Shown here: in pieces, positions 1 through 55,192 of the stretch
How positions within the stretch are numbered: the first letter of the stretch is position 1
How the letters are laid out: each line of letters starts with the position of its first letter
IMG/VR virus record: IMGVR_UViG_3300023174_000082
Span: 1-64,000 of that record
Direction: 5' to 3' (one strand)
From: a virus
Length of the DNA stretch: 64,000 nt
Translations under genes and position numbers: made by a program
The notes under the pieces: model-generated
What the model was told of the DNA's origin: nothing
Seen by the model: only the letters and a program-made list of their open reading frames with translations
The model's database searches: none

Positions 1-720
1 ACGCACACGGCTGAGATTAGTATTATATCTAGCATAAACACGTGGTCCATCTCCTAGTTCAACAATTCTTTTCATGTAACGCCAATGTTGCTCGTACATC
101 AAGGGCTCGCCACCCACCCAGTAGATTTCTTCTACACGATGTTGTTCAACGGCGGCAGCAAATTCGGCTTCAATTTGACTATCCTGAAATTGGGAGATGC
201 TGTCACGTATATCTGGTTGCATCCAATTGTTTTTTGGATTGCGCCAGTCAACCATGTTGTGAGTCCTTTGCTCAGTTTCCCACGAGCTCGATAACATATC
301 CCCACACATCCTACATTTAAAATTACATAGATTACTAAACCTATAGTCCCATGAGACTGGCTGTAAACTAGTTCGCCCCTCTGCAGTTGTGTTTGATACA
401 ATTTCATCAAATTTATGACCAAAGAGATGCGTGAAATAATCTCTGTATACGCTTGTGTTGAGTAGTTTGTCATTGCATACTTCGCATTCAGGCAGTGTAT
501 GACCAGCCAGCATGCGTCTGCGCACACTTTGCATGTGTTCCGAATTCCAGTGTTCTTCCAAGGTCACGGGAATATAGCGGCCAGTGCCCGACTCAGTGTC
601 TATGTACTGCCGAAAATTCTGTGCAGGCTCGCGACTAGCACAGCACATGCGCCGTTCAGTTTGCGGGCTTAGATAGGTATGCACCCAAGGTGCTAAACAC
701 ATGGTATCGGGTTTATTCAT
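1..720 (-). CDS. Radical SAM protein with N-terminal twitch-like domain (partial, runs off the window start; absent from the ORF track)
   Basis: Manual translation from ATG at 720: MNKPDTMCLAPWVHTYLSPQTERRMCC...ECEVC...WDYRFSNLCNFKCRMCG...WVGGEPL...YNTN. It contains CxxxCxxC and GGEP and showed no stop in the segments translated by hand. Confidence 0.9.
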   Translation of the reverse strand, partial: MNKPDTMCLAPWVHTYLSPQTERRMCCASREPAQNFRQYIDTESGTGRYIPVTLEEHWNSEHMQSVRRRMLAGHTLPECEVCNDKLLNTSVYRDYFTHLFGHKFDEIVSNTTAEGRTSLQPVSWDYRFSNLCNFKCRMCGDMLSSSWETEQRTHNMVDWRNPKNNWMQPDIRDSISQFQDSQIEAEFAAAVEQHRVEEIYWVGGEPLMYEQHWRYMKRIVELGDGPRVYARYNTNLSRVR

Positions 721-1726
721 TTAAAAATTCTAATATGGGATCCAACACCTGTTGCTGGAGCAACTGCTGTGTTACCGCAGAGTCAAAAATCCTGTGCCGA
801 TTGTGCTGGAGTTTTTGTTGCACCGCCGGCTGGTTTAATTGTGCTGTATCAAACTGTTGCACTTGTTGTATAATGAAGTTTAACCGTTGATCAAAGTCAA
901 CAATTGAATCGTAGCTTTCGTCCCATAACTCTGGAAATGTTTCAAATCCAAAACTCTGTATCTCTGCCAGGGTACCTGGAGTTGCTACCACAATAAATGG
1001 ATGTTGCATGGCCATGGGTTTTAGACTCTTTTCACTCACAAACACACCTGACGGGGCAGTGACTGAAATTTCTCCAGGAAATGCGCCAATTGAACTTTCG
1101 CACACCAAGCTCATTGCAGAAAGATGAAACCAGCGTGGGTTAACCTGCCACAAGTGTCCAGCGCCTGTAACATCGTCGGGCATGCTGATTCCCTGGGACA
1201 AATAGCTACGCATTACATCTGCCCCCAAGGGATTCAATGCTCGCCATACTTGGTCTCGCCAGGGTCTTGTGTAGTTGATCATGCACAATGTTTTATACCG
1301 TGCAGTTGGTGTATATGCAATATTGTGATAGTTTAATTTTTCCCAATAATCCCGACAACGCAACCATATCCAGGCAGGCACAGCTTGCACTCGCAAATTG
1401 TCAATTGCGCCAGGTACAGATCCCAAACTAAACAAAAGATGTTGTTGTGGATATTGCTGTAGTAATTCAACCACCCACCACCCTTCAGACGTAAACCAAT
1501 GTTCACTTTTGTTGTCGTAAATTACTCTATAACCAGCTTGAAGGTGACTTTCAAGATACTGTTTGACCCAGTGTTCGCTGAGATAATGATCATACGCAAA
1601 CACTGTGTTATTGGAATATTTTTTAGCAGGGTCAAAAAATTCATAGTCCACAGGAAAATACGCAGACATATTCCTAGGTGCATGTGCGGCATCAAACATC
1701 ATTACCAAATTACTGGTCATAGTCAT
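713..1726 (-). CDS. Putative glycosyltransferase (GT10/GT-B-like C-terminal motif); start uncertain (1720-1732)
   Basis: The motif LVCES..FVSEKSLKPMAMQHPF..GFETF..DESYD resembles the E-x-S/T...TEK motif of GT10-type transferases. Paralog of 5909..7006. Confidence 0.5.
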   Translation of the reverse strand: MTMTSNLVMMFDAAHAPRNMSAYFPVDYEFFDPAKKYSNNTVFAYDHYLSEHWVKQYLESHLQAGYRVIYDNKSEHWFTSEGWWVVELLQQYPQQHLLFSLGSVPGAIDNLRVQAVPAWIWLRCRDYWEKLNYHNIAYTPTARYKTLCMINYTRPWRDQVWRALNPLGADVMRSYLSQGISMPDDVTGAGHLWQVNPRWFHLSAMSLVCESSIGAFPGEISVTAPSGVFVSEKSLKPMAMQHPFIVVATPGTLAEIQSFGFETFPELWDESYDSIVDFDQRLNFIIQQVQQFDTAQLNQPAVQQKLQHNRHRIFDSAVTQQLLQQQVLDPILEFLNE

Positions 1727-2927
1727 AGCCAATTATTTCAGCAAATTCAGGAGCAACTGAACGTAGATTTTGTTTTCTCTTGCGGTCTAAATCGCGTACT
1801 TTCATTCGCAACATAAAGCCGTCTGTTGAAGCGCCGCCATTCATAAAGTCTGTGATTCTATCAAATTCCTCACGATACTGTGTGGGCACATCAGCTGAAC
1901 GTAGATGTTTGGTGATTTCAACTTTGGCAGAGTCTGGCAGTGTGGCAATTGAAAAGTACCAGGCATCATGCATCATGTTCCAGTACACAAAGTCAAACCC
2001 TTGCAGTGCTATCCAATGAGCCAGTTGATCAATGTAACGCACATTAAACACATTCACGGTACTACAGCATTGCAAGCGCAGGTTGGGCAGTTGATCTCGC
2101 AGGTATTGAAAACTTGTAATGGTATCCAGCACCACTGCCCAGTCTGCATTGGTGCGTTGATATTCAAAGCGGGCACCCACATCATCTATTGAGAACGCCA
2201 CTTCTACTGTTTTAAAATGGCGCCAAATGTCCGGACCACGAGCAGGCCATTGTGTGCCGTTTGTGTTGTAGTGTATTTCTACCTGATGTGCAATACCACG
2301 ATCCACAATGCCCTGCAACATGTCAAAGTGTTGATCAATCATGAATGGCTCGCCACCTGTAAATTCAATATAGCGTATGTCATTTAAACAGGCGTCAATT
2401 TCTGTCCAAAATGATTCGTTTTCTCTGGGCCAGGCGCCAGCACGTAGCATTTGATAGGGAAATGTCTTTTTCTTATCGTCATCTGGATGCATGTCATTTA
2501 ATTCTTCTGTGGCAAATTGGCTGCTGCTCCATGATCCGCATATACGACATTTTAAATTGCAGATGTTGCCCAGCTTCAAATCCAAGAACATCAGCGGCTT
2601 GGCCGTGGCAGTCCACTCATCACTTATGCCCATGTGCTTCATTCTGTCCAGGGTGTGCATGCGTTTTGATGTGCGCCCAGCACGTTCTTCATTCCAGCAC
2701 TTGCGACAGGTCTGTGGTTTTTCACCTGCTAGAAACTGTTCACGCAGGCGTGTCATTGCACGTGAGTTTTGTATGTCAGCAAAGTTGGCATTCAACAGTG
2801 AAAACTTAGTGCCTGAATCATCTGTCAGTTCATCATCTGCCAGACAGCATGGGCGTACTGTGCCAATAGGAGAGGCTTCTAACGAAACCCAGGGCAATAC
2901 GCAAAATTGATCGTGTGGTATATTCAT
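1710..2927 (-). CDS. Radical SAM protein with N-terminal twitch-like domain
   Basis: N-terminal FCVLPW..RPCC..CRKC, then CNLKCRIC, FTGGEP, YNTNG and FSID. Confidence 0.92.
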   Translation of the reverse strand: MNIPHDQFCVLPWVSLEASPIGTVRPCCLADDELTDDSGTKFSLLNANFADIQNSRAMTRLREQFLAGEKPQTCRKCWNEERAGRTSKRMHTLDRMKHMGISDEWTATAKPLMFLDLKLGNICNLKCRICGSWSSSQFATEELNDMHPDDDKKKTFPYQMLRAGAWPRENESFWTEIDACLNDIRYIEFTGGEPFMIDQHFDMLQGIVDRGIAHQVEIHYNTNGTQWPARGPDIWRHFKTVEVAFSIDDVGARFEYQRTNADWAVVLDTITSFQYLRDQLPNLRLQCCSTVNVFNVRYIDQLAHWIALQGFDFVYWNMMHDAWYFSIATLPDSAKVEITKHLRSADVPTQYREEFDRITDFMNGGASTDGFMLRMKVRDLDRKRKQNLRSVAPEFAEIIGYDYDQ

Positions 2928-4594
2928 TTTAGTGCCTGTAATTCTGGAATTGTATCCAATATGCTTTCATTTCGTATGGCATCAAGTTCGTTTGTTTTGC
3001 GCCAAAAAGTATCAATTAAATGAGTGTTGTCTGTGCTCATCATGAATTTGATAGCACTTTCAAATCCCACAGTAGCACGTTTTAAATGATCCAATGGACG
3101 CAACCATTCTAGATGTTGTTCAAGTTTGTGTTTGATTTTTTCTTTATACTCTGCTGGAGCAATGTCAATTCTAAAATAAGTAGGATCTTGCAAGATGTTT
3201 ACATTTAGGTCCTGCGCTTTTAACAGGCCTTTTGCAACCCAGTCACGATGAAAGTCTGGCAAGTGCAGCGCATTCATTATACTCAAGGTAGGGCTAATGT
3301 AAAAATCCACTTCGGGGCATGTGGCCAGCATGTCTTTACGATTTTGTTCTACCACAGCCCAGTCTGTGCCCTTGCGTATGTATTCGCCGTAGCGGCCCTG
3401 CCCATCCAAACTGGCACCCACTGCCACTGACTTGAATTGTTTCCAGTAGTCAAATACTGAACGGCCCTTTAGATCAGTATGTGTGAAATTGGTGTTGTAG
3501 ATCAATCGCACATCAAAGCGTTTGCGACGGACCAGTTCGTCTAGAATACGATAGTGTTCTTCCATCAGGAGAGGTTCACCACCCGCAAAGTAGATTTGTT
3601 CCACATGGTCCAGGTGTGGAACAAGTTGTTCCCACATGTCGGTTTCTGTGCGGCCTGCGTAGTTAAGCACAGTGTTGCGAGCTTTCCAGTCTGGACCAGC
3701 CAATTTGGCTTGATCTTGATACCATTGTGAGCTAAAAATATGCCCACATGAACGGCATTTTAAATTGCATAGGTTACTAAAACGAATATCCCAATAGGTC
3801 ATTTCAAATGGATTTTGTTCTAGCTTTTTTATGTGATGTCCGTGATGTTTATTGGCGCTTTGTCGTCCTGAAAAGAATCCTGACTTTTCTTGTTCGTAAC
3901 AACGGCCGCAAGCAGCATTGGGTGTTTCACTCAGCATGTCCTTGCGCAGTCTTTGCATGGGTGCGCCAGTCCATATTTCCTCTAGGGTGTTTGTTCTACA
4001 GTTGCCCACCTGTCCCACACCCATTTCAGCATGGCAACAAGGGTATGCTTCGCCGGTGGGCCAGGCATGCAGATGCACCCAGGGGTACATGCAAAATGTC
4101 TGGCTTTCAGTCAATAAAAATTGCTGTTGTGCGTCAAGTTCATTCAGCTTGATTTTGATAGGATTGGCTGATCCATATTGATAGTGCTCTTGCTTGCTGT
4201 AAGGATATTGATCCAGGCTGATTCTACGAAACTGTCCTGGCTGTTGTTCAAATCTCACTTGTACTGGGTCAGTGCTGAGTGACTTTATGGTTTGCATTTC
4301 TTCAGCAATGTCAGGATTAGTGCTAGAAATAACACAAAAATAATTGCTGATGTCTGTGGCATTCAGCGCCACTTGCACATTCTTTAAAATAATTCCCACT
4401 GAATCAGAATCTTTTACATAGTAATCATGTGTGTGCAAAAACACAATGCGTTGATTTTCTTTGTACACAGTTTGATATAGTTGTCGACACGATTTGTGCA
4501 ACCATTTCACACTTGTTTCATAATCATCAGTCCATTGGGTAAGATCAATTGTTCCAACAACTTCATACTGTGTGCGCAGTTGTTCTGATATCAT
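2924..4594 (-). CDS. Radical SAM protein with twitch-like domain and an extra ~165-aa N-terminal region
   Basis: FCMYPW..YPCC..CGRC, CNLKCRSC, FAGGEP, YNTN and SLDG. Start placed at ATG 4594, which forms an ATGA overlap with the upstream stop. Confidence 0.9.
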   Translation of the reverse strand: MISEQLRTQYEVVGTIDLTQWTDDYETSVKWLHKSCRQLYQTVYKENQRIVFLHTHDYYVKDSDSVGIILKNVQVALNATDISNYFCVISSTNPDIAEEMQTIKSLSTDPVQVRFEQQPGQFRRISLDQYPYSKQEHYQYGSANPIKIKLNELDAQQQFLLTESQTFCMYPWVHLHAWPTGEAYPCCHAEMGVGQVGNCRTNTLEEIWTGAPMQRLRKDMLSETPNAACGRCYEQEKSGFFSGRQSANKHHGHHIKKLEQNPFEMTYWDIRFSNLCNLKCRSCGHIFSSQWYQDQAKLAGPDWKARNTVLNYAGRTETDMWEQLVPHLDHVEQIYFAGGEPLLMEEHYRILDELVRRKRFDVRLIYNTNFTHTDLKGRSVFDYWKQFKSVAVGASLDGQGRYGEYIRKGTDWAVVEQNRKDMLATCPEVDFYISPTLSIMNALHLPDFHRDWVAKGLLKAQDLNVNILQDPTYFRIDIAPAEYKEKIKHKLEQHLEWLRPLDHLKRATVGFESAIKFMMSTDNTHLIDTFWRKTNELDAIRNESILDTIPELQALK

Positions 4595-5922
4595 AAGCTG
4601 TTGTACCATTCTTTTAATTGAGGAAATGCTGTGTGAAAATCTTTTGACCTACGTTGATCGTATTGTGTGTAGAATTGACGGAAATCATTCAGTAATTTAG
4701 GACGATCAAATGCATCAGAATGCGGGGTCTTTACCACATCCAAATAGTCTACTAATCGTTGTAAATGATTCCATTCATGCTCGTGCAAGTAAGAATAACC
4801 TTTGTGTCGCACCATGAAGTCAGCCAGCTGATCGCGATACTTTGTACGTATATCATCAGGCAAGACCAAGGGTGATTGAAATGACGGAAAACGCAGAATA
4901 TTTAATGTGAAACTTATGGCATCACGCCCATACTCCAGCTTCCATTTCACTATGCACTCTAGCAATTGATCCAATGAATCCAAGCACAATGCGTTAATAG
5001 TACACATCACATGTATGCTACGGAACTGCTTGGAACTTAACAAGCGGTTGACATTGTGCATCCAGTCCGCCCAGACGAGCCCGTCACGAATGTATTCGGC
5101 TTGCAGTCCAACGGCTTCGTTTGAAGTGTATATGTCAATTGCCATGCCTTTTGTGCTGGCCAGCAAGCGGTCAATGTCTACGTCTGTGCCTAGGTTACTG
5201 TTGATAGCCAGGCGTGTTGAACTCTTGCCTGAATTTGTTCGAAACCAATCAATGAGCTTCCAGGTGTGCCCAGACATGAGGGGCTCACCACCGGTGATAC
5301 GGAGCTCTTGCAAGGTTCGATGTAGATCCGATTCCCACCACTTAAAAAATGCATCAATGTATGGATTGCTTTCTCCATAATCATATAATTGTGCGCTATC
5401 ATGGGTATGAGTAAAATGGTTGCGGCCATCGGATACCAATTGGGTATATGGTCCATTCCGTTTGATATCGCGTACCCAAGTACTGCTAAAAGCTGGATTG
5501 CAATAGCTGCAAGCAAACTGACAAGTGCGATCAAAAGCGATTTCAAGTGTGCGGAGGTTGACGTCTTCAGTATATGGTGTATTTCTAGCTTCATCTAATG
5601 CTTCTATAGGATATATCCGTGATTTATACACACGGTCAGAAATGGCATCGCGGCCCATGTCTTCAATTTTCCAACAATACTCGCAGCCAGGGGGACGCTC
5701 CCCGTTGATCATTTGTTGGCGATCCGCCTTCTTTTGATCAGTATTGTGCAGTAGCCTAGGGTTGATGCTGACTTTATCACTGTCGATCAAATGAGCTGGT
5801 GGGTGATGACAACTTGTGGTCTGTCCACTTCCTAACCAAATGGTTGCGTTATACCATTTTGCCGCACAAAAGCTGGCTGAGAGAGGGTCTAATACTTGCT
5901 GACGGAACTCAAGATCGTTCAT
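4591..5922 (-). CDS. Radical SAM protein with N-terminal twitch-like domain (SCHH subtype)
   Basis: FCAAKW..SCHHP..CEYCW, CQFACSYC and ITGGEP. Confidence 0.9.
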   Translation of the reverse strand: MNDLEFRQQVLDPLSASFCAAKWYNATIWLGSGQTTSCHHPPAHLIDSDKVSINPRLLHNTDQKKADRQQMINGERPPGCEYCWKIEDMGRDAISDRVYKSRIYPIEALDEARNTPYTEDVNLRTLEIAFDRTCQFACSYCNPAFSSTWVRDIKRNGPYTQLVSDGRNHFTHTHDSAQLYDYGESNPYIDAFFKWWESDLHRTLQELRITGGEPLMSGHTWKLIDWFRTNSGKSSTRLAINSNLGTDVDIDRLLASTKGMAIDIYTSNEAVGLQAEYIRDGLVWADWMHNVNRLLSSKQFRSIHVMCTINALCLDSLDQLLECIVKWKLEYGRDAISFTLNILRFPSFQSPLVLPDDIRTKYRDQLADFMVRHKGYSYLHEHEWNHLQRLVDYLDVVKTPHSDAFDRPKLLNDFRQFYTQYDQRRSKDFHTAFPQLKEWYNSL

Positions 5923-7006
5923 CTAAATACTTTTCTAAATTGATGGGGAGTTGGGCACGTTCCAATCTATTGTGCTCCACTAGGTGCTGTTGATTATATT
6001 TACAGATATCCTGCGTTGCTGTCCAGAATTCAGCAGCACCGTTCTGACAGATCTCGCCAATTGTTGCTATTATACTATCTATTCGGGTGCTTGGGCAATC
6101 AATTTGGTCGTACGATTCGTCAATGTAGTTGTGAAACGTTTGGAATCCTGCGTTGCGCAAGTCTCGCAAGTAACCCCTGTTGGCAGCTGCCACAAATGGG
6201 TGTGCCATTAATATGGGCTTCCATATCTTTTCTGTTCTAAACGAGTGCGGATAGTCAAATATGGTTTCTGTTACCACTGAGAACCAAGTGTCTGTGTAGC
6301 AACGTGGATTAACAATGGCATCGCCCCAGGTATTGCCAAACAAATGATGCTTGCAAAAACTGTGTGCATACGCTGATTCCATGTTGGGCAGGGCACGTTC
6401 AATTTCATATTCTGGGGGCAACAGCCTAATAGGCTCAAGCTGATTGGTTTGTAGAACAGAAGTAAATGCCATTTCAACAGAACTGCCCAGGTTGGTCCAT
6501 AATGCATGATCCAACAGTTGTGATTCACGCAGGCCGTCTAAGAGTGCTTTGCGGTGTGGGCGCAAGCGACCATTTAAAAAAAGAAATTCATAAGGACGCT
6601 GTTGTTTATATTCCGCTTGTAGCTGTGCTGATTTATTTTCTGTGTATTCTACTATGTTTGAAAAGTAACAATCTGTTTTGCAGTAATTCCAGCCTGCACC
6701 CAAGTCGCCTGACGTTAACAGTCCTATACGTCCATCACTCACTAGTTCTGCAATGCGCAGTCGTTTGAGTTGTAGCAGTATGGTTTCTGATCCTTCGGCA
6801 GGGTTGGAGAACACAATGCGTCCAGGGTACTGAGTGGCCCAGTTTGTAATGGTTGACCAGTTGTCTTTCAATATCACGCGGCCAACAACATACACATTGG
6901 CAGGATCCAAGCTGGGCAACTGCCAGAAACTACTGTCAGCATAGGGCTTGAGCAAGTCCCAGACTTCAGCCCATTCGTCAACAATGAGTTTATGTGTTCC
7001 TAGCAT
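5909..7006 (-). CDS. Putative glycosyltransferase (GT10/GT-B-like)
   Basis: FLFLNGRLRPHR and VVTET..RTEKIWKPILMAHPF..GFQTF..DESYD. Paralog of 713..1726. Likely start is MLGTHK at 7006. Confidence 0.5.
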   Translation of the reverse strand: MLGTHKLIVDEWAEVWDLLKPYADSSFWQLPSLDPANVYVVGRVILKDNWSTITNWATQYPGRIVFSNPAEGSETILLQLKRLRIAELVSDGRIGLLTSGDLGAGWNYCKTDCYFSNIVEYTENKSAQLQAEYKQQRPYEFLFLNGRLRPHRKALLDGLRESQLLDHALWTNLGSSVEMAFTSVLQTNQLEPIRLLPPEYEIERALPNMESAYAHSFCKHHLFGNTWGDAIVNPRCYTDTWFSVVTETIFDYPHSFRTEKIWKPILMAHPFVAAANRGYLRDLRNAGFQTFHNYIDESYDQIDCPSTRIDSIIATIGEICQNGAAEFWTATQDICKYNQQHLVEHNRLERAQLPINLEKYLDERS

Positions 7007-8915
7007 GGTACTCGCACTCTGCCCACCAGGCACGCATTTCTGGAAAGGTCTTTAAAAAATCAGTGCCTCTACGGCGATCGTGTTCTGAAAAGAAACGATA
7101 AAAGTCTGCTCGAGCTGCGACGTGGTCCGTACCCTGCCCTGCTCGCATCCATGCAATGTCTCTGTCCAGTCTAGCAATTTCGTAGTCTTTAAACCCGTGA
7201 AATGGATCTTCAGCAGTTTCTGTCCAACGTATCATCCACGCCCACAAGTACTCTAGTCGTTCAGCATATGATTCGGGTAGAATTTGCAAACTCTGCCAAG
7301 CAGGTTCACGCAGTACAGGTGTATCAAACCACACACGCTGATAGGTTTTGCTGTAGGTTTTGCGCAAGCCCAGGATGCCAGCAAACAAGTTTTCCAAGCT
7401 GGTCACACTCAAGTTGTTCATGGTAACAATGAACGTTAAGCTGTTGTAGCTGGGAACTTCAGTCAGGAATTGATTTACTCGGTCCCACAGCAGGTCAAAG
7501 TCCAGGCCGTGGCGCATGTATTCTGCTTGAGAACCCCATCCGTCTAGGCTCACATACTGCATGAAGTGTTCTAGATTGCCTTCCTGGCACAGGCGTTTTA
7601 CGTAGTCTAGATAACGTTGCCATGACTTCTCATCTACAGAAAAGTTACTGGTCACATTCAAGTGCAAATTGGGTTTGGGGTGTTCTAATACGTAATCAAA
7701 CACTCTGTATGTGTTTTTGTCTAATAGCGGTTCGCCGCCGGTCATGCGAAAATGTTCCAATTCAGGATAAAGATCAGGCCACCATTCCCAGAACGCTTCT
7801 ACATAAGGGTTATGCTCTCTAGCCGCAAGTACCCTGCGATCTCCACTAAAATGCCCAGGATCATTGTGAACACGAGCAGTAGGGTAGCCGCCCGATCGGT
7901 CCACTTCTTGTTGCCAGCTGCTAGAGAATTGCGGACTGCAATAACTGCACATGAGATTACACACATTATTAAAATTGACCTCAACGTAGCTAGGGATAAT
8001 ATCATCTGAGTACTCCGAACTGATAATTTTTCCAAAATCTTTAGCAGCCCAACGTTCGCCACTGCGAAAATGCCTGTCACTGAGTTTGCCTTCTGCTTCC
8101 ATGTTCCAGCAATAACTGCATTCAGCCGGGCGACCACCGTTGAGCATTTCACGACGTTGTTCTTTTTTCCACGGCGTGTTATGCAATGCTGACGGATTGC
8201 GTTGTATGGCTTCTATTGGGATTCGGTGCAGGGGAGGGTGATAGCATGAATTGTTCAAACCAGTCTGCAGGTGCAGACTGACTTGTTTCCATTTGGCAAG
8301 ACACATGCCTGGACCAATTTGATTCAATTGCATGCGCATCTTTTCTGCGTCGTCTAGAAACTTGCTTTTAAAGCCTTCTACAATTTTATCGCCGGGGATG
8401 TCTCTCAACAGCGCCGGACGAAATTCCTCAGCTGCCTGGTCAAACACATCACTTGTACACAGCGCCAATTCATCACGCATCATTGCGGCAAACTCTGTGC
8501 TGTCAGTGTCAATGTTTACCACAACATCAGCACCTGTAACATCCACAGGATACTGTTGATAATACCTGTCATGAAACCCAATGGTGCTTAGAGCATTTTC
8601 TTTGGGGTCAGGCATGTTGTTTTCTCTATGTTGTCCGGCCAGTACCCATTCTCTGCGCAGTCCTGCTAGACGATCACACAGAATAACATGCACCTGGTGC
8701 GTGGGCCATAGTGACTTTAGCAATGGTACATTCATGCAGTGTGTTAAGATCACCGGCATGTCTTTGAGCGTGGAATTGTTTTCAGGATATCTGTATGCAG
8801 AATTTTGAGTTTTTAACAAATGATCATAGGTAGTTGCTGGAGCAAAATCACTGACTCCTTGAAGCATTTGGTAGTACCGATTTCCACCGGCACCTAAATA
8901 AAAAGCAATAATCAT
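6990..8915 (-). CDS. Fusion of a degenerate sulfotransferase/P-loop-like N-terminal domain with a twitch-radical SAM domain
   Basis: N-terminal IIAFYLGAGGN, then MCLAKW..SCYHP..CSYCW, CNLMCSYC, MTGGEP and SLDG. Start at ATG 8915, just after a TATAAT box. The radical SAM part is firm; the N-terminal call is tentative. Confidence 0.85.
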   Translation of the reverse strand: MIIAFYLGAGGNRYYQMLQGVSDFAPATTYDHLLKTQNSAYRYPENNSTLKDMPVILTHCMNVPLLKSLWPTHQVHVILCDRLAGLRREWVLAGQHRENNMPDPKENALSTIGFHDRYYQQYPVDVTGADVVVNIDTDSTEFAAMMRDELALCTSDVFDQAAEEFRPALLRDIPGDKIVEGFKSKFLDDAEKMRMQLNQIGPGMCLAKWKQVSLHLQTGLNNSCYHPPLHRIPIEAIQRNPSALHNTPWKKEQRREMLNGGRPAECSYCWNMEAEGKLSDRHFRSGERWAAKDFGKIISSEYSDDIIPSYVEVNFNNVCNLMCSYCSPQFSSSWQQEVDRSGGYPTARVHNDPGHFSGDRRVLAAREHNPYVEAFWEWWPDLYPELEHFRMTGGEPLLDKNTYRVFDYVLEHPKPNLHLNVTSNFSVDEKSWQRYLDYVKRLCQEGNLEHFMQYVSLDGWGSQAEYMRHGLDFDLLWDRVNQFLTEVPSYNSLTFIVTMNNLSVTSLENLFAGILGLRKTYSKTYQRVWFDTPVLREPAWQSLQILPESYAERLEYLWAWMIRWTETAEDPFHGFKDYEIARLDRDIAWMRAGQGTDHVAARADFYRFFSEHDRRRGTDFLKTFPEMRAWWAECEYHARNT

Positions 8916-8921
8916 ATTGGT

Positions 8922-8950
8922 ATTATAACACAAACTCAATCAAACTTCAA
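8922..8950 (-). promoter_or_regulatory. Sigma70-type promoter, probably giving a leaderless mRNA
   Basis: TTGAAG (8950-8945), 17-nt spacer, TATAAT (8927-8922) with a TG extension. The ATG follows after a 6-nt gap. Confidence 0.65.
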
Positions 8951-10021
8951 GTCTGACATCATAAGTTTAGGTTGAGAGATAGTGGCCGAAAGCGATGGCA
9001 TAGAATTTCCGCGCCAGACTTGATATTCTAACTGGGCAGCATGCTCCATGTTTTGTGGGGTGTATGTTAACCCCTGCTGAGGTTGATTGTGATTGACCCA
9101 ATGATTGTAATGCAACAAACACTGATCAATGTTTTGAATCAAACTGGCCTTTTCGCCCAAGGTATGCAGTTTGATAGGAATACCCGACACCAGTATGCCT
9201 TGGTCTTGCAGATCCTGCAAATGAATTCTAGCAGCACCGTATAAATCAATATGCGTGGTCATGAAGTCATTTTCTTCTGCGCTGAATTGATAATCAAAAC
9301 TCACAAGACTCAGCAAGTAATGCATGCGATTCCAGTCAGCCCAGGAAATGTCAAAACGATCATGCCACTTTAGAGGATTGTTGAATTTTCTAAAGCATCC
9401 AAGGTTTACAATAAAATTTTCAATGTTAGGCAAGTCACGTTCGTATTCAAAATAAGCATTTACTGTGAAGTGTGCATCCACCCAGGCCAAGTAATCTTGG
9501 TAGGCTGTGAGATATCTGTCCATTACATCAGGCTGTATGTTTATGCCTTGTTTTTGCAATTCAGCAAACGTTTGATGTTTTTCTTCAAAACTGTAAACGT
9601 TGAGTTTTTTACTTTCAGCGGATATACACCAACTCATTGCGTGTTCGAACAAGTTTTCTCTGCGGGCAGCAATAATATAAAAGTTTTCATTGAGCCACTG
9701 ATAAAAACTCAATTGATCAGACAAACTGTCTCTTCGTTTTTTTATGTGATAGTGCGCCAATCTACTGACCACATCATGCCCACGCGACGAAAGCATTTGA
9801 GTGATAGTGCTTAAACTTTGATGGTATCCCCAAGCATCAGGCTTTTTGCCCAACATGTTTGTTTTGTAATACTCATTGGGATACTCAACCAACCCATTGG
9901 TCAGCTCGTGTAGATTTACTGTGAGTGGGGTTTGGTTTTCGTTTATATTAGCATACACTGTTATCAAGCGTTGCAATAATGTACTGCCCACACGGTCAGG
10001 TGTAAGTATAAGAACGTTCAT
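8936..10021 (-). CDS. Sulfotransferase-like (P-loop) protein
   Basis: N-terminal NVLILTPDRVGSTLLQ resembles the 5'-PSB loop. Later IIAARRENLFEHAMS and FEYE match sulfotransferase-fold landmarks. Confidence 0.55.
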   Translation of the reverse strand: MNVLILTPDRVGSTLLQRLITVYANINENQTPLTVNLHELTNGLVEYPNEYYKTNMLGKKPDAWGYHQSLSTITQMLSSRGHDVVSRLAHYHIKKRRDSLSDQLSFYQWLNENFYIIAARRENLFEHAMSWCISAESKKLNVYSFEEKHQTFAELQKQGINIQPDVMDRYLTAYQDYLAWVDAHFTVNAYFEYERDLPNIENFIVNLGCFRKFNNPLKWHDRFDISWADWNRMHYLLSLVSFDYQFSAEENDFMTTHIDLYGAARIHLQDLQDQGILVSGIPIKLHTLGEKASLIQNIDQCLLHYNHWVNHNQPQQGLTYTPQNMEHAAQLEYQVWRGNSMPSLSATISQPKLMMSDLKFD

Positions 10022-10028
10022 TGGCAAA

Positions 10029-10036
10029 TATTTATA
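10029..10036 (-). promoter_or_regulatory. T4-type late promoter TATAAATA
   Basis: Exact TATAAATA on the minus strand, 7 nt before ATG 10021. Confidence 0.7.
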
Positions 10037-10044
10037 GATACACC

Positions 10045-10728
10045 ATGCATAAGATTATAATTCCCAGATACGCAAATTTGTCGTGTTCACAATTAGGGCA
10101 CGACAGCCCAACACATGCTGGTCAAAAGTTTTTCATGCATGAGCCAGTACAATATCAATTCAATGCCAACGGTTTTAGAACACACGATTTTTCCCAGCTT
10201 GATTCCAACTGTGTGTTGATTGTTGGCGACAGTTATACACTGGGCATGGGCGAAAATATTAACTGTTGCTACACTACCATAATAGAACAGCAACTGGGTT
10301 GGCCAGTGTTCAATATCAGTTTGAATGGTGCCAGCAATGATTGGATTGCTAGGCGCACAAAAGACATGCTAGACATAGTACAACCACGTGCAATTGTAAT
10401 ACATTACACATTTAGTCATCGTCGTGAATTCCACAACACAGCCTGGCACGATGACGAACGCACCTTGTGCGAACCTGTGCATACATCAGCTGAAAATTTT
10501 GATAACTGGCAACAAAATTTTAATAAAATTATTGCATCAGCTGGATCAACACCGTTGATTCACAGCTTTATCCCAAATTGGCACGATGCACCAGTTGATT
10601 ATGCTGTCATGCCAGGCATGATACTGCCACCCATTGAGTCAGTGGACTGTGCTCGTGATGGGTTTCATTACGGACCACGCACACATCAACTGTTGGCCAA
10701 TCAAATTACCAACCTTCTTGCTGCCTAA
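10045..10728 (+). CDS. SGNH/GDSL hydrolase-like protein (esterase or acyltransferase)
   Basis: Block I IVGDSYTLG, block II NISLNGASND, block V RDGFHYG. Likely start is ATG 10045. Confidence 0.75.
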   Translation: MHKIIIPRYANLSCSQLGHDSPTHAGQKFFMHEPVQYQFNANGFRTHDFSQLDSNCVLIVGDSYTLGMGENINCCYTTIIEQQLGWPVFNISLNGASNDWIARRTKDMLDIVQPRAIVIHYTFSHRREFHNTAWHDDERTLCEPVHTSAENFDNWQQNFNKIIASAGSTPLIHSFIPNWHDAPVDYAVMPGMILPPIESVDCARDGFHYGPRTHQLLANQITNLLAA

Positions 10729-11629
10729 TAACATCTATTTCACGTGTCATAACACCACGATTGCGCCAGTCAGAACGATAGTGATATTTGAAGAACGCTG
10801 ATTGTTCTGCTTCCAATATGGCCATCGGAAGATCCAATTGTGTGCCCAGTTCAGGACCCAGTTGATTGCTGAGTATGCGAGGGTTTGAATCTTTCACAGT
10901 ATCCCACAGCGCCTCTAGTGCAGCAAAATCTTGTACTTGACGATGATCCCAGTTTGTGAGCATGGTCATGTATGTGCCTTGGCGGCTGCCAGCAATAGCC
11001 CATTCTCCGTGATCAACGTCTGTGCCAATGTTGTGCCAGATAGTCAAGTTGTCAAGATTGCGTAGCACTTGATTTTTAAATTCTTCCACAGTGGGTCGGC
11101 GCCCGCGTTGCAGACACATCTTAACACCTTCACGGAATCCTGCACGCCAGGCATGAAATGGCGATCCATTGGGATAGGTATTTGAGTAGCAGTCGTGCAT
11201 GGGCCAGTATAAAGGATCAAAGCAAAACTCTACTTCAGTTTCTGCACGACCATCCGTGGCTTCGTGAGTTTGCATGTTCTGCACAAAGTCTCGGGTCCAA
11301 CTACTCAGGCCACCGTTGCCATACATCAGTCCGTTGATATGGTTACGTGCCCGCCACCGGAACACAGCACTCTCATATTCTTCATTAGGAAAAACAAGTG
11401 TCTGATTAAAAAACGCCGGGTCGGGGAGATTGTCGCCATCGATGAGAATGAATCTATCCGTACTACTCGCTTGGGCTGCCGCTTTGTGAGCTGCATCGCT
11501 CCCTTTAACGCCATCCACCCGTTGTGCCCAAGGAACCATATTCCTAATCTTGACCCAAAATTCTTCTCGTTGTGGTTCGTCATAACTCAAGTATATGCAA
11601 TCTAAGTCTGCAACGTCAATCTGTTTCAT
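10706..11629 (-). CDS. GT-A-like (DxD) glycosyltransferase-like protein
   Basis: IYLSYDEP..RVDGVKGSDAAHKAAA..FILIDGDN, with a DxD motif after a hydrophobic strand. Confidence 0.55.
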   Translation of the reverse strand: MKQIDVADLDCIYLSYDEPQREEFWVKIRNMVPWAQRVDGVKGSDAAHKAAAQASSTDRFILIDGDNLPDPAFFNQTLVFPNEEYESAVFRWRARNHINGLMYGNGGLSSWTRDFVQNMQTHEATDGRAETEVEFCFDPLYWPMHDCYSNTYPNGSPFHAWRAGFREGVKMCLQRGRRPTVEEFKNQVLRNLDNLTIWHNIGTDVDHGEWAIAGSRQGTYMTMLTNWDHRQVQDFAALEALWDTVKDSNPRILSNQLGPELGTQLDLPMAILEAEQSAFFKYHYRSDWRNRGVMTREIDVIRQQEGW

Positions 11630-11945
11630 AAGTTTGTTTGCTCCAATATGTGCCGTGTTCTTTTACCACAATGGTTACATCATCAGGATGACACATTGTG
11701 CCTGAATTTTGTGGTACAAGTTTTTGTGTGGTTTTCCAAGTTGTTTCTACAAGTTTACCATCTCGCACACGCACACGAGTGGAATTTTTAGCAAATGTTT
11801 CTTGATCAATTTCTATGTATGTACCAGGCAGATCTTCCATGCTGTAAAATAAAGGACAGCCCTGGTCATCATGATACAATCTGTACGTTACAGGATCAGG
11901 CCTGGGCATGTGTTCTAGTGCGCCAAAAAATTCCTCAGGTGTCAT
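11616..11945 (-). CDS. Hypothetical protein
   Basis: ORF within the operon. Start MTPEEFF at 11945 forms an ATGA overlap with the upstream stop. Confidence 0.7.
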   Translation of the reverse strand: MTPEEFFGALEHMPRPDPVTYRLYHDDQGCPLFYSMEDLPGTYIEIDQETFAKNSTRVRVRDGKLVETTWKTTQKLVPQNSGTMCHPDDVTIVVKEHGTYWSKQTYETD

Positions 11946-12712
11946 TTCCAGCCTCGTCCATAGTGAAACGCACCCCACTGTGCCACTGTGTTGATACGCA
12001 AGCGCCAGTCTGAATATTCCCATACCAGTTCACGACCCCAGTATTCAGTTTCAGTTCCAGCGTGGTGCCGTTTCATGTGTACAATTTTTGGATACGAAGC
12101 AAATGGCAAGGTCACACGTTCTGGACCCATGATTTCAGCTGCCATGGCATACACTAGATCAGTGTCTGCTGTTTCGGGTGCAAACTTCAACAGTTGCCTG
12201 AATTGCGGCCAGTTGGCAAATATATCACGCACTAACATAAAGAACTCTTGAGCTGTGAGGCTCAATCGCCAGTAAGTTACGGCATTGTACACATCTGGTA
12301 AGTTGTTCACATCAAACACTGATCTGTAGTTTCTAGCTGGGCTAACTTGGTCTTGCCAGTTTCTGCAACCAGTTGATACCACAACATCACGATGCCTAAA
12401 CAAAGTCCACCAGTGCGATATGTCACTCACAATCAGCATGTCTGCTTCTAGCTTTATGGTTTCCCTAAACGGTGAGTTCTTGAACACCTGCCAGTCATTG
12501 GCCCAAGGGTTTTCACGGTCCACATTGTCAATCACTTGATAGTGATCGTATATGGGATCGTTGCTTTGCTTGGCATCTGTAATCAAACAAACTTTTGCAC
12601 CCGGATCCCAACGTTTGATTGTTTTGGTCAATGTTCTAGCACAATCCAAGTAGTCAACTTTGTCAGAGTTAATGGCCAGTATCACATAACCTTGTTCATC
12701 AATGGGACGCAA
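11942..12712 (-). CDS. GT-A fold glycosyltransferase-like protein (GT8-like)
   Basis: GYVILA..Y..CA..L..TIK, SPFRETIKLEADML (DxD variant) and a C-terminal HMK. Paralog of the next gene. Confidence 0.6.
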   Translation of the reverse strand: MRPIDEQGYVILAINSDKVDYLDCARTLTKTIKRWDPGAKVCLITDAKQSNDPIYDHYQVIDNVDRENPWANDWQVFKNSPFRETIKLEADMLIVSDISHWWTLFRHRDVVVSTGCRNWQDQVSPARNYRSVFDVNNLPDVYNAVTYWRLSLTAQEFFMLVRDIFANWPQFRQLLKFAPETADTDLVYAMAAEIMGPERVTLPFASYPKIVHMKRHHAGTETEYWGRELVWEYSDWRLRINTVAQWGAFHYGRGWK

Positions 12713-13496
12713 TTATCATCTCCAAATGACGTTTGCCCATGGCGTGAAAATCCATGCCTGACCAACCTAGTGTTTTGCGCTTTTGATCACTGTCCATGTA
12801 ATTTATTGTGTAGTAGTCTGGGCCATTACTGGTCAACGCAGTGTCGGGCATGGCGGTCATCAAGGGCCAAGGAATTTGGTCTACTAAGCCAGTGTGCCCG
12901 CTCACTATGCCAATAGCAATGGTCAACGCAAAGTCGTTTCTATAAGTTTTTTTATCAATCCCGTACAAGTCTCGGTAGTGTTGCCAGTTGTCACGAATCA
13001 TATTCATGCAATCAAAAATGTACTGTGCAGTGTTTGATTGACGAAACATCATCACAGTGGCCCAATACATGGGAATGTTGTAGCGTCCAAATACATTGAG
13101 TCCTGTTAAGGGATAGCCGCCAGCAAGATTTACAGCAGTTTTGTGACACATGAAATCTGTGTTACATTCCAAAACAGTTTTGAGGTCTGAGCTGGCCACA
13201 ACATAATCTGCATCTAGCACCAGGGTCTGTTCCCACGGGCTCAGTGTATATGCATCTACCCTACCGGCATTGTGCCAGGTCACAGTTTGATTGTAATCTT
13301 CAAAATATCTGGTACCACCACTTTGTGCTCGGGAGTTTATGACATAATCAAAGTCGCCTAGCGGGTTTTCATAATCAGTTACCACAGCCACAGGGATTCC
13401 AAGATGCCGGTGTATGTTTTTGGCAGACCATGCTGCCATAGAAATATAATCAGTTTGCTCGTTATCAAAAGCAAATATCAGTGCGCCAGTGGTCAT
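12699..13496 (-). CDS. GT-A fold glycosyltransferase-like protein (GT8-like)
   Basis: GALIFAF..YISMA, SPWEQTLVLDADYVV (DxD), RNDFA and HAMGK. Start at 13496 (ATGA overlap). Confidence 0.65.
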   Translation of the reverse strand: MTTGALIFAFDNEQTDYISMAAWSAKNIHRHLGIPVAVVTDYENPLGDFDYVINSRAQSGGTRYFEDYNQTVTWHNAGRVDAYTLSPWEQTLVLDADYVVASSDLKTVLECNTDFMCHKTAVNLAGGYPLTGLNVFGRYNIPMYWATVMMFRQSNTAQYIFDCMNMIRDNWQHYRDLYGIDKKTYRNDFALTIAIGIVSGHTGLVDQIPWPLMTAMPDTALTSNGPDYYTINYMDSDQKRKTLGWSGMDFHAMGKRHLEMIIASH

Positions 13497-13798
13497 CGCT
13501 GTTTGCTGAGTTCGTTGTGTACTGCAAGCCAAGCATTCATTTGCTCTTGCCAACGTTGCATGGCCAAGCTGCGCAGTTCTTCAGGACGTACTTGTACAGG
13601 ATTTTCATACAAGTCCAATAGCACTGCATTGCCCGGAGGCACAGCAGCCAAGATGTTTATGAGTTCAGGTCCAGCACGCCACATGCCGCCGGCATGTGCA
13701 AATATCATTCGTGCTTCGTACTTTTCTCGAATAACACGTTTAGCGGTGGCGTGGTCAAATCTTGCTCGTGCATGAGCAATTAAGTTTTCAGTATCCAT
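13493..13798 (-). CDS. Hypothetical protein (first gene of the glycosyltransferase operon)
   Basis: 101-aa ORF directly behind a promoter and coupled to the next gene. Confidence 0.75.
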   Translation of the reverse strand: MDTENLIAHARARFDHATAKRVIREKYEARMIFAHAGGMWRAGPELINILAAVPPGNAVLLDLYENPVQVRPEELRSLAMQRWQEQMNAWLAVHNELSKQR

Positions 13799-13803
13799 GT
13801 TGA

Positions 13804-13832
13804 ATTATAACAGAAAGTGCAAGGGCTGTAAA
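13804..13832 (-). promoter_or_regulatory. Sigma70-type promoter, probably giving a leaderless mRNA
   Basis: TTTACA (13832-13827), 17-nt spacer, TATAAT (13809-13804) with a TG extension. ATG 13798 follows after 5 nt. The -35 box lies in a hairpin AAGGGT-ttaca-GCCCTT. Confidence 0.65.
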
Positions 13833-13841
13833 CCCTTTTGG

Positions 13842-14792
13842 TTAAGCTGTTGTTGCGGCAACTGAAGGGGTTCCCCAGCTCGCGCTTAGATATGTTGTGC
13901 TGGGTGGATAGTAAGTCACAATGGTACAAGGTGCTGTACCAGGTGTTGCACCTGCGGCAGCCGTACCACCTGAAATTGGGTCGCCGTCTGATGCTGACCA
14001 TAAAGTGGTAATGGTCAGTGCAGTTGATCCTGCATTTTTAGCAAGCGAGTGCTGAATGAAGTTTGCAGTGTAAGGTGCGGTGTCAGCAAATTGTTTGTAA
14101 ACTATCACAGCAGCGCCGCCGGCAACTAGGGCATCCCATCCGTTACCTGTGGTCAATGTATTTGGTGTACCAGTTCCGCCAATTTTGGTTACACCTGTAT
14201 ATGAGGTGCCAGCAATGGTGTGAGCTGATGCCAGTCCAGAAATCCAAATGTCGCCGCACAGGGTTGAGGCCAGGTCATTCCATTCCGGATCGCCTGTTTG
14301 GCCTGTTGCTGATTTGGCGACGTCAATTTTAACCAAACCACCTGCATTGAAAAAATATTGAGCAGCAGCAGATGATGCAAAGGTAACGGTATTAGTAAAA
14401 GTAATGGTCCAGGTGGCACCTGTGGTTGCAGCAGTTTTGGAGTTTGTACCACTCCAACCAGTAAACTGTGAGCCAACAGCCACAGCTTGATATCGATTAT
14501 TATAGGTATTGGTAAGATCAGTGTTTACCGCTGCCAACACACTCACAAGAGTTCCTGTGGTCGGCGCACTTCTAGCGGTAATTGTAGTACCTTGATGGCT
14601 GGCCTGCGAGCTGATGGTGTTTACCAAGCTGGCCCACTGAGTAGCTGTTACTGTTCCTGCGGTACTTACTGTGCTTAGAGCTGTTTGTCCGTATGATGTG
14701 TCCCAGGTGGCGTTAACGTTGGCGCCAGCAGTGGTGCTAACAAAACCGTTGTAATCTGTGGCCTGAATTAAGCCGCCTGCTGAATATGTCAT
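13842..14792 (-). CDS. Virion structural protein (tail or tail-fibre associated)
   Basis: T/A/S/G-rich 316-aa protein beginning MTYSAGGLIQATDYN with an AQYFFNAGG motif, located after the fibre gene. Confidence 0.6.
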   Translation of the reverse strand: MTYSAGGLIQATDYNGFVSTTAGANVNATWDTSYGQTALSTVSTAGTVTATQWASLVNTISSQASHQGTTITARSAPTTGTLVSVLAAVNTDLTNTYNNRYQAVAVGSQFTGWSGTNSKTAATTGATWTITFTNTVTFASSAAAQYFFNAGGLVKIDVAKSATGQTGDPEWNDLASTLCGDIWISGLASAHTIAGTSYTGVTKIGGTGTPNTLTTGNGWDALVAGGAAVIVYKQFADTAPYTANFIQHSLAKNAGSTALTITTLWSASDGDPISGGTAAAGATPGTAPCTIVTYYPPSTTYLSASWGTPSVAATTA

Positions 14793-16611: not shown

Positions 16612-16619
16612 TATTTATA
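16612..16619 (-). promoter_or_regulatory. T4-type late promoter TATAAATA
   Basis: Exact match upstream of the fibre gene start at 16586. Confidence 0.7.
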
Positions 16620-17373: not shown

Positions 17374-17381
17374 TATTTATC
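17374..17381 (-). promoter_or_regulatory. Late promoter-like GATAAATA
   Basis: 7 nt before ATG 17366. Confidence 0.55.
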
Positions 17382-35759: not shown

Positions 35760-35781
35760 GCCTCTTTGCCTTTAGATCTTG

Positions 35782-35789
35782 TATTTATT
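35782..35789 (-). promoter_or_regulatory. Late promoter-like AATAAATA
   Basis: Intergenic, upstream of the gp6-like start. Confidence 0.55.
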
Positions 35790-35808
35790 ACTAGAAAAAA
35801 CGGCTCAG

Positions 35809-43828: not shown

Positions 43829-43845
43829 ATTTTTTTCCTATACCT

Positions 43846-43853
43846 TATTTATT
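43846..43853 (-). promoter_or_regulatory. Late promoter-like AATAAATA heading the baseplate operon
   Basis: Intergenic, followed by AGGA and the ATG at 43828. Confidence 0.55.
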
Positions 43854-43884
43854 GCTGATAAAAACAGCATAGTTTAACAAGAGG

Positions 43885-55151: not shown

Positions 55152-55159
55152 AGTGTACC

Positions 55160-55181
55160 CATAAATATACTTCTACTTATA
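55160..55181. promoter_or_regulatory. Facing late promoter-like boxes serving divergent genes
   Basis: CATAAATA on + (55160-55167) towards the tape measure gene, and TATAAGTA on - (55181-55174) towards the gp26-like gene. Confidence 0.5.
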
Positions 55182-55192
55182 GGTGTTTTTCA

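Follow-up and report, generated by a model that had tools for sequence, protein, structure and literature searches.

What does a large bacteriophage do with five radical S-adenosylmethionine (SAM) enzymes encoded among glycosyltransferase-like genes directly behind a fiber gene? The question is posed by positions 1 to 13798 of a 64,000-nucleotide stretch (the window), which is the first 64 kb of the linear viral contig IMGVR_UViG_3300023174_000082 from IMG/VR (116,950 bp; CheckV completeness, 34%). The original prediction for this locus was a pathway that builds and tailors a glycan. Fourteen open reading frames (ORFs) fill the region, as tightly packed as had been described; 13 are on the minus strand and one, g09, is on the plus strand, and neighboring genes overlap at their starts and stops or lie nearly end to end (most overlaps are 4 to 44 nt; for example, 713-720, 2924-2927, and 8936-8939). 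Because g01 is cut by the start of the contig, the cluster is incomplete here; its counterparts in relatives extend for a further 3 to 4 kb, with genes for a conserved protein of ~355 aa, a peptide of 33 residues, in some cases a GDSL protein, and a carbamoyltransferase. The explanation that we favor, and to which we give about even weight, is that the genes form a self-contained operon whose enzymes, soluble and cytoplasmic, assemble a glycan and edit it chemically.

A scan of IMG/VR with g06 identified 56 related loci, 35 of which have full flanks (full-length loci), and gene order was compared in nine of the loci. Orthologs of all five radical SAM genes are present in every one of the 35 full-length loci, and the nine loci share a single order: fiber gene, g14, g13, g12, g11, g10, a variable slot, g07, g06, g05, g04, g03, the g02-type gene (family X, below), and g01. 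The cluster is therefore real rather than a chance assembly, and the co-occurrence across related phages, which had been put forward as a check, is confirmed. Among the full-length loci, g12 is likewise present in all 35, g10 and g13 in 34 each, and, with crude gene calls, g11 and g14 in 30 each; a single locus has g08 and g09, which are accessory. The number of N-twitch radical SAM genes per full-length locus is five in 27 loci, six in 5, and seven in 3, and the complete relatives in IMG/VR, with genomes of 331 to 364 kb, have 6 to 13 each.

Radical SAM enzymes and transferase-like proteins of the cluster

The five proteins singled out originally for their CxxxCxxC motifs (g01, g03, g04, g05, and g07) are members of one radical SAM family. 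All of them match NCBIfam NF033640 (N_Twi_rSAM) with 208 to 401 bits, above the curated whole-protein cut-off of 170 bits, as do three further proteins encoded elsewhere on the contig (at 93.3, 106.6, and 108.3 kb). Pfam reports Radical_SAM below threshold throughout, together with an N-terminal SPASM match (at residues 8-83, 9-78, and 173-238), which places the twitch domain ahead of the core; in g03, SPASM covers residues 9-78 and Radical_SAM residues 119-270. In an alignment of 14 paralogs and orthologs, the N-terminal cysteines C9, C28, C74, and C77 are conserved, and C123, C127, and C130 of the CxxxCxxC motif and G191, G192, and E193 of a GGEP-type SAM-binding motif are invariant; four cysteines preceding the CxxxCxxC motif fit one fully ligated auxiliary cluster N-terminal to the core. 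No radical SAM relative of g03 was detected by a PDB sequence search. Apart from the g03 ortholog included in the alignment, the paralogs are only 17 to 28% identical to g03, whereas orthologs of each copy are mostly 66 to 96% identical among the loci covering the gene. This combination indicates an old duplication with copies that are probably not redundant, and it points to five distinct jobs.

The copies also differ in architecture. Full-length g01 orthologs in the nine loci are 425 to 451 aa, and g04 orthologs in the same loci are 419 to 429 aa and lack the g04 N-terminal extension, save for a 565-aa form in L043; the extension has no Pfam match, and that of g07 is a separate ORF in L019. 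Relative to NF033640, which is known as a catalog entry only and to which the cluster enzymes conform with a four-cysteine N-terminal twitch region followed by the CxxxCxxC core, the cluster is distinguished by these additional N-terminal regions of ~170 and ~210 aa and by the presence of five to seven copies in a phage operon. The closest characterized likeness is BtrN of butirosin biosynthesis, which has a radical SAM core with one four-cysteine auxiliary cluster and a carbohydrate-like substrate; BtrN and other SPASM/twitch enzymes carry the auxiliary domain as an extension at the C terminus, whereas here it is N-terminal (PMC9012708, in excerpt). The surrounding sugar genes suggest that the substrates of the cluster enzymes are of a class resembling that of BtrN.

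The two proteins described originally as GT10-like, g02 and g06, are paralogs (31% identity over 137 aa) and form what we call family X, and their glycosyltransferase fold stands, while a GT10 assignment is not supported. In 38 family X sequences, residues R161, E268, and K269 do not vary, nor do G and F columns (alignment A1); these three residues may correspond to the Arg and Glu-Lys donor-binding motif in the C-terminal domain of the Helicobacter pylori fucosyltransferase. An AlphaFold2 model of g06 made from the 38-sequence alignment (mean predicted local distance difference test [pLDDT], 89.6) matches GT-B glycosyltransferases in a Foldseek search of the PDB, with SenB as the best match (E, 1.4e-4) and PglA and EXT1/2 also among the matches; the H. 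pylori fucosyltransferase ranks 37. In the VIA structural comparison, Z is at least 8 for 304 of 982 chains, and GT-B enzymes account for all of the best 50 rows, with T4 beta-glucosyltransferase (Z, 12.6), TarM (12.6), the phage HY126 glycosyltransferase (12.3), and the H. pylori fucosyltransferase (12.3) tied. Against BFVD, the top matches of the g06 model are uncharacterized phage proteins (E, 1.6e-35), and lower ones include a Solivirus alpha-1,3-fucosyltransferase (E, 1.4e-4), a mimivirus GT10 protein (E, 1.1e-3), and mimivirus L138. A Pfam scan of the 38 family X members, with E values of up to 1 allowed, gave no match to a glycosyltransferase family, and with the structural scores tied, a GT-B fold is as far as the assignment goes.

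Three further proteins had been described as GT-A-like, and the two for which this finds moderate support are g12 and g13, predicted to be GT8-like glycosyltransferases. They are paralogs (26% identity over 206 aa) in a family of 1940 clusters (at 50% identity; exhaustive representative search, E up to 0.001). Neither has a Pfam match as a single sequence, and among 65 relatives scanned of 150 listed representatives, one matches PF03407, below threshold (E, 0.0018). A 116-sequence profile of the family (A6) matches 19 PDB sequences, all of them glycogenins (GT8), at a best E of 0.0075, which is weak; its segment lllDaDylv lines up with the glycogenin DxD motif, g12 itself has E-A-D at this position, and D91 and H250 are invariant in the 116 sequences. 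A search of a set of 5.8 billion proteins with this profile returned close orthologs only, without Pfam labels. The third protein, g10, is the best conserved cluster protein outside the radical SAM enzymes (mean column identity, 81%; DGDN invariant in alignment A2), but its GT-A label is not borne out. Its AlphaFold2 model is poor (pLDDT, 62.4), and Foldseek found no match to that model; its best VIA Z is 5.5, with a Rossmann-like N terminus, and GT-A chains reach Z values of 4.0 to 4.5, level with periplasmic binding proteins. Pfam Glyco_tranf_2_3 aligns around the DGD motif at E 0.13, and an ESM Atlas neighbor is automatically named as GT2-like. PDB sequence searches with profiles A1 (family X), A2 (g10), and A3 gave nothing useful.

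For the accessory pair, neither of the original labels is secured. The sulfotransferase label of g08 reflects language-model similarity: the nearest named ESM Atlas clusters are Stf0/Sulfotransfer_3 (0.94 to 0.95), which is the sole lead. As a single sequence, g08 has no match in Pfam (PF09037 and PF13469), NCBIfam, or the PDB, a 30-sequence profile (A7) has none in the PDB, and the 1661 homologs in the 5.8-billion-protein set, which are close orthologs only, include none with a Pfam label. The SGNH label of g09 reflects Pfam matches below threshold: DUF6473 (E, 0.0042), Lipase_GDSL (E, 0.019; 15.5 bits against a cut-off of 23.6), and Lipase_GDSL_2 (E, 0.079). GDS, GxND (G-x-S-N-D), and DxxH (D-G-F-H) motifs can be seen in g09 by eye, and a PDB sequence search with g09 gave nothing useful. 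Scans of Pfam, PHROG, and NCBIfam found no family match for g11 and g14. None of the 14 cluster proteins has a 19-residue hydrophobic window reaching 1.6, and thus none has a membrane segment.

Accessory genes, bacterial loci, and a cultured relative

The variable gene content of the related loci bears on what the cluster makes. From 212 unassigned cluster ORFs we derived 80 representatives, and scanned the 66 largest against Pfam; 40 of these have no match. The families assigned, counted over all 56 loci, are carbamoyltransferase (27 loci), short-chain dehydrogenase/reductase (SDR) dehydratase/epimerase (9), AMP-binding enzyme (9), FkbM methyltransferase (7), GDSL hydrolase (6), class I methyltransferase (4), PfkB kinase (4), DegT aminotransferase (2), hexapeptide acetyltransferase (2), and B12-radical SAM (1). 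Judged by these predicted families, this is the vocabulary of nucleotide-sugar synthesis and tailoring. An Fcl/GalE-like SDR gene is present on the same contig (111823-112779), and the complete relatives have two to four SDR genes each. No sugar nucleotidyltransferase was found in any of the five complete relatives, which implies the use of host nucleoside diphosphate (NDP)-sugars.

Bacterial N_Twi_rSAM genes give a mixed picture. We fetched 80 bacterial loci using a six-sequence radical SAM alignment and read 13 of them. Five have glycosyltransferase, SDR, or deoxysugar neighbors (L073, L085, L087, L110, and L126), two are suggestive (L074, with a carbamoyltransferase; L082, with dioxygenases, a methyltransferase, and an ABC ATPase), and the other six are without glycan context. 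The GT-B fold of g06, the GT8-like profile of g12 and g13, the nucleotide-sugar genes of the relatives, and these five bacterial loci together uphold the core of the original prediction, a pathway for building and tailoring a glycan.

A cultured phage also carries the core module. Ralstonia phage RsoM2USA (MG752970) has homologs in the same order (g13, g12, g10, radical SAM) within ORF348-354, beside virion genes, with identities of 32.5% for g13 (ORF353), 32% for g12, 38% for g10 (ORF350), and 35% for the radical SAM gene (ORF349), which is of the g07 type; a second g10-like gene is also present. It differs from the cluster in having a single radical SAM copy and no family X GT-B gene in the stretch examined. 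The ORFs of its module are all annotated as hypothetical, and in the available text none is among the 10 identified virion bands, which include ORF356, ORF359, and ORF361 (PMC8504454, in excerpt).

The phage itself is a distant T4-like myovirus, as shown by contig genes for a baseplate wedge, a gp55-like late sigma factor, gp46/47-like nucleases, a portal, a prohead protease, and a major head protein. Its portal is nearest to those of jumbo phages (Sinorhizobium phage Phosso, 58% identity; Agrobacterium phage Atu_ph07, 48.5%; Pseudomonas PA5oct group, 48%), and megablast of positions 1-14000 against cultured phages gave no match. The "moraphage" of a published study was set aside, being of another lineage, outside the T4 group (PMC12619734, in excerpt). 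A single ORF of 4900 aa occupies 17377-32079 (minus strand), between the fiber-side genes and the baseplate wedge gene; RsoM2USA ORF361, identified in virions, is its large counterpart. A g03 ortholog with 71% identity is present on two contigs (L065 and L066; 183 kb and 148 kb) assigned to a Haliscomenobacter metagenome-assembled genome (Bacteroidota). These are probably phage contigs of the same clade, which would make the assignment either a binning artifact or a hint as to the host.

Other radical SAM genes are scattered over the contig. Two that are not of the N-twitch type lie at 48451-50306 (plus strand), between the gp46/47-like nuclease genes and a gene for a SegE-type GIY-YIG endonuclease (50341-50769). 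At contig positions 93317-95068, an N_Twi_rSAM gene is immediately upstream of a T4 gp1-like deoxynucleoside monophosphate (dNMP) kinase gene, a possible hint of nucleotide-level chemistry. The segment at 106643-112779, before the large terminase gene, contains two N_Twi_rSAM genes, three unknown genes, and the Fcl/GalE-like SDR gene. The window also encodes a 179-aa Pfs-like protein (52286-52825, minus strand) resembling methylthioadenosine/S-adenosylhomocysteine (MTA/SAH) nucleosidases (PF01048; NF004168, 104 bits against a cut-off of 129), which could remove the 5'-deoxyadenosine produced by the many radical SAM enzymes of the phage.

Table 1. Features of the cluster and its fiber-side flank, with positions in the window
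Feature	Position	Strand	Description	Evidence
g01	1..720	-	N-twitch radical SAM, C-terminal part lost at contig end	NF033640, 207.8 bits on 240 aa; CxxxCxxC
g02	713..1732	-	Family X, GT-B glycosyltransferase-like, paralog of g06	BLASTP vs g06, E 4e-13
g03	1710..2927	-	Stand-alone N-twitch radical SAM, 405 aa	NF033640, 331.7 bits
g04	2924..4609	-	N-twitch radical SAM with N-terminal extension of ~170 aa	NF033640, 400.6 bits, residues 169-559
g05	4591..5922	-	N-twitch radical SAM, KW...SCHHPP subtype	NF033640, 296.1 bits; alignment A4
g06	5909..7033	-	Family X, soluble GT-B fold glycosyltransferase-like	AlphaFold2 pLDDT 89.6; Foldseek
g07	6990..8939	-	N-twitch radical SAM with N-terminal extension of ~210 aa	NF033640, 317.9 bits, residues 211-638
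g08	8936..10027	-	Accessory; candidate, possible Stf0-type sulfotransferase	ESM Atlas clusters, 0.94-0.95
g09	10021..10728	+	Accessory; weakly SGNH/GDSL-hydrolase-like	Sub-threshold Pfam; motifs by eye
g10	10706..11629	-	Invariant DGDN motif; GT-A possible	Alignment A2
g11	11616..12023	-	Small conserved protein, ~110-135 aa, start uncertain	30/35 full-length loci
g12	11942..12712	-	GT8-like (GT-A) glycosyltransferase candidate	PHROG 1903, E 3.7e-14; profile A6
g13	12699..13553	-	GT8-like candidate with D-A-D motif, paralog of g12	BLASTP vs g12, E 4e-9
g14	13493..13798	-	First operon gene, small helical protein	30/35 full-length loci
Intergenic junction	13799..13841	-	Terminator-like hairpin, then sigma-70-like promoter	Promoter scan, 11/12 matches
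g15	13842..14792	-	Ser/Thr-rich fiber-like structural protein, putative acceptor	28.8% Ser+Thr

Transcription of the cluster and the acceptor of its product

The placement of the cluster behind a Ser/Thr-rich fiber gene is as originally described (Table 1), and the 43-nt gap between g15 and g14 contains two signals. The first is a hairpin with a T-run, conserved in 25 aligned sequences and retaining pairing at three of six pairs despite two-sided changes; the second is a promoter-like motif (TTTACA, 17 nt, and TATAAT with an upstream TG) ending 5 to 6 nt before the g14 ATG. Exact TATAAT is present at this site in 38 of 54 related loci, and most of the others are one base off. By contrast, structural genes have, 20 to 30 nt ahead of the start, a (C/T)ATAAATA-like motif and after it a ribosome-binding site, as seen for g16 and the wedge, sheath, portal, and tube genes (sites at 16612-16619, 35760-35800, 43829-43870, 55150-55192, and others), and a ATAAAATA-type late-promoter-like motif is upstream of g15. 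The gp55-like and gp47-like genes have TTGACA and TACAAT separated by 17 to 18 nt, and the leaderless sigma-70-like layout recurs at two nonstructural genes (89.4 and 91.7 kb). Two promoter classes, one T4-like and late and the other sigma-70-like and early, thus seem to be present in the phage. With a hairpin and a sigma-70-like promoter between it and the fiber gene, the enzyme operon looks like a separate unit, and we infer that it is read by a host-type polymerase, with late read-through possible.

A T4-type late promoter for the operon was also considered, and the claim was dropped because the window shows no enrichment of TATAAATA (3 matches versus 1.58 expected; 21 of 100 shuffles reach 3). 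One TATAAATA motif is at 10029-10036 (minus strand), 7 nt before the likely g08 ATG and within the short stretch from which g08 and g09 diverge; transcription may start anew from it past the inserted cassette.

We infer the following scheme for the pathway, in its chemical steps and acceptor as well as in its timing. Host nucleotide sugars would be the starting material, and the sugars would be transferred by the GT-B proteins g02 and g06, the GT8-like g12 and g13, and possibly g10. The five anciently diverged N-twitch radical SAM enzymes would each remove a hydrogen atom from a carbon of a sugar, with the fully cysteine-ligated auxiliary cluster taking the electron, as in BtrN; the outcome could be oxidation, epimerization, deoxygenation, or C-C chemistry. 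Strain-specific cassettes would add decorations, here through the possible sulfotransferase and SGNH-like esterase, and in relatives by carbamoyl, methyl, amino/acetyl, or phosphate chemistry. A soluble acceptor is favored because no cluster protein has a membrane segment, and the acceptor is most likely a soluble target made by the phage; virion proteins are the leading guess, whether the adjacent Ser/Thr-rich fiber protein or others. Circumstantial support for a virion target is provided by the position of the cluster behind structural genes, which is the same in the nine loci and in RsoM2USA, and by the conserved C-terminal tail of the g15 fiber protein, which averages 38% Ser+Thr in 40 distinct orthologs.

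A more ambitious version of the same idea, which we advance tentatively and consider rather doubtful, is that N_Twi_rSAM is a large class of carbohydrate-editing radical enzymes, and that five or more of them in series radically edit a glycan coating the virion or its fibers. The sugars of such a coat would be C-epimerized, oxidized, deoxygenated, or C-C linked, and sulfo, acyl, carbamoyl, methyl, and amino cassettes would diversify it, by analogy with O-antigens.

Several observations weigh against a glycan-editing operon directed at the virion. Literature searches gave no paper on an N_Twi_rSAM member, and neither a structure nor a reaction was found for any of them. Six of the 13 bacterial loci have no glycan context, and an MTA/SAH nucleosidase gene is found in only two of the five complete relatives. 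The transferase assignments are exposed as well, through the lack of Pfam glycosyltransferase matches in family X, the single PF03407 match and weak glycogenin matches in the g12/g13 family, and the failure of Pfam, Foldseek, and PDB searches to place g10, g08, and g09 in families. A possible peptide substrate, the 33-residue peptide, is encoded in many relatives (see below). Finally, the promoter of the operon is sigma-70-like and lacks the structural-gene motif, and a terminator-like hairpin divides it from the fiber gene, both of which weaken the case for a virion target; a separate promoter of this kind possibly means early expression, which a DNA or host target would fit as well as a virion target does.

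The best placed of the alternatives, although an unlikely one, is DNA hypermodification, in which sugars would be put on phage bases, T4-style, as a defense against host nucleases, with the radical SAM enzymes tailoring the sugars or the nucleotide. The structural tie of g06 with T4 beta-glucosyltransferase at the top, and the phage HY126 enzyme close by, speaks for such a pathway, but the tie also takes in many GT-B enzymes that do not act on DNA. All of the cluster enzymes are soluble, one N_Twi_rSAM copy is beside the dNMP kinase gene (contig 93.3 to 95.1 kb), and the operon promoter resembles those of the gp55-like and gp47-like genes, which are taken as early or middle by analogy with T4. 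However, a hydroxymethylase of the thymidylate synthase family is absent from all five relatives of 95 to 100% completeness, and no Tet/JBP dioxygenase was found in four complete relatives or the present contig, a weak point given that control genomes are equally silent. The cluster is, moreover, fixed behind fiber genes rather than among replication genes.

Remodeling of the host surface, with O-antigen or capsule altered during infection to block superinfection, has a precedent in the pelagimyophages, whose tail-fiber-side island holds glycosyltransferases (GT8 the commonest), read in this way by the authors, and radical SAM cassettes (PMC7029224, in excerpt). Bacterial N_Twi_rSAM genes do occur in polysaccharide clusters with ABC transporter genes, and gene content differs between close relatives in the manner of O-antigen loci. 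We nonetheless regard this as quite improbable for the cluster: none of the 14 proteins has a membrane segment, and the accessory genes assignable by Pfam include no flippase, polymerase, polyprenyl-phosphate transferase, lipid-carrier, or export gene. The core is also strictly conserved across phages that are only 40 to 80% identical and in a Ralstonia phage, which would be odd for a function tied to one host serotype.

A third alternative is a pathway resembling those for ribosomally synthesized and post-translationally modified peptides (RiPPs), in which SPASM/twitch radical SAM enzymes cross-link or epimerize a peptide or virion protein that transferases then glycosylate. The N-terminal SPASM matches accord with this, as do weak, partial NCBIfam matches to sactipeptide and ranthipeptide maturases, but the maturase models score far below their cut-offs, and no PqqD/RRE-type domain is among the Pfam matches of the cluster proteins at E up to 0.01. 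One candidate substrate would be the near-invariant, basic 33-residue peptide, whose gene is 3' of g01 in 41 of the 56 loci (64 to 100% identity; for example, L044:18096-18197); it is not on the present contig, which ends inside g01. This gene is usually just before the carbamoyltransferase gene and does not adjoin the radical SAM genes. By our own reading of the sequences, the peptide has no Cys and almost no Ser/Thr and is invariant from end to end, which is more in keeping with a partner subunit than with a precursor, whose core would be expected to vary, and we find the RiPP-like pathway hard to credit.

Genes for carbamoyl, sulfo, methyl, and acetyl transfer together with aminotransferase genes are typical small-molecule tailoring sets, and such genes are seen in the variable slots of relatives, the sulfotransferase lead being that of g08 in the ESM Atlas. 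A diffusible product made during infection and kept separate from the virion, for instance a decorated oligosaccharide of the aminoglycoside, nucleoside, or Nod factor type, is even so the least probable explanation, since, for all the solubility of the enzymes and the role of the twitch enzyme BtrN in aminoglycoside biosynthesis (PMC9012708, in excerpt), no scaffold-forming enzyme such as inosose synthase is among the Pfam matches, the cluster has no exporter gene, and its fixed position beside structural genes would be left without obvious reason.

Relation to known viral glycan systems

Virus-encoded glycan pathways are found in giant viruses and a few phages, but we know of none that uses radical SAM chemistry; nor, to our knowledge, does virion glycosylation in mycobacteriophages involve radical SAM enzymes. 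The mycobacteriophage system, in which phage-encoded glycosyltransferases put glycans on virion proteins (Freeman et al. 2023, as cited in PMC12619734, in excerpt), is the working model for the operon, with the differences that its hosts are Actinobacteria and that in the present system attachment to virions is a prediction. Fibril glycosylation in the Megavirinae offers a second likeness, with clade-specific clusters that supply a surface layer of the virion with rare sugars of bacterial type (PMC10117803, in excerpt). These are viruses of eukaryotes, and the likeness extends to the matches of the g06 model to giant-virus glycosyltransferases, among them mimivirus L138 and GT10-annotated proteins; the term "radical SAM" does not appear in the available text of a 2022 review of giant-virus glycans (PMC9614988).

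The host recognition cluster of the pelagimyophages is close in setting, being a variable island on the tail fiber side of aquatic T4-like myophages with GT8 and radical SAM genes; its authors proposed modification of the host O-chain for this hypervariable island (Zaragoza-Solas et al. 2020, PMC7029224, in excerpt). Those phages are much smaller and of another clade, their radical SAM genes are mentioned in passing in the available text, and the cluster described here differs in its fixed core of five strictly conserved N-twitch paralogs. Literature searches combining jumbo phages, radical SAM enzymes, and glycosyltransferases found no paper, and searches for the N-terminal twitch or the N_Twi_rSAM family name found nothing specific.

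The operon would thus be one more virus-encoded glycan island, with radical chemistry as its predicted new element. If this is true, its product would be the first viral glycan made with radical chemistry. N_Twi_rSAM enzymes are common in aquatic bacteria and phages, yet they have no assigned reaction, and the phages of this clade invest heavily in them, with up to 13 genes in a genome. A cultured relative carries the core module, and the question is therefore open to bench testing. Solving the system would give a function to a cataloged enzyme family and possibly reveal new sugar chemistry, and it would test the idea that the virions of large phages bear variable glycan coats.

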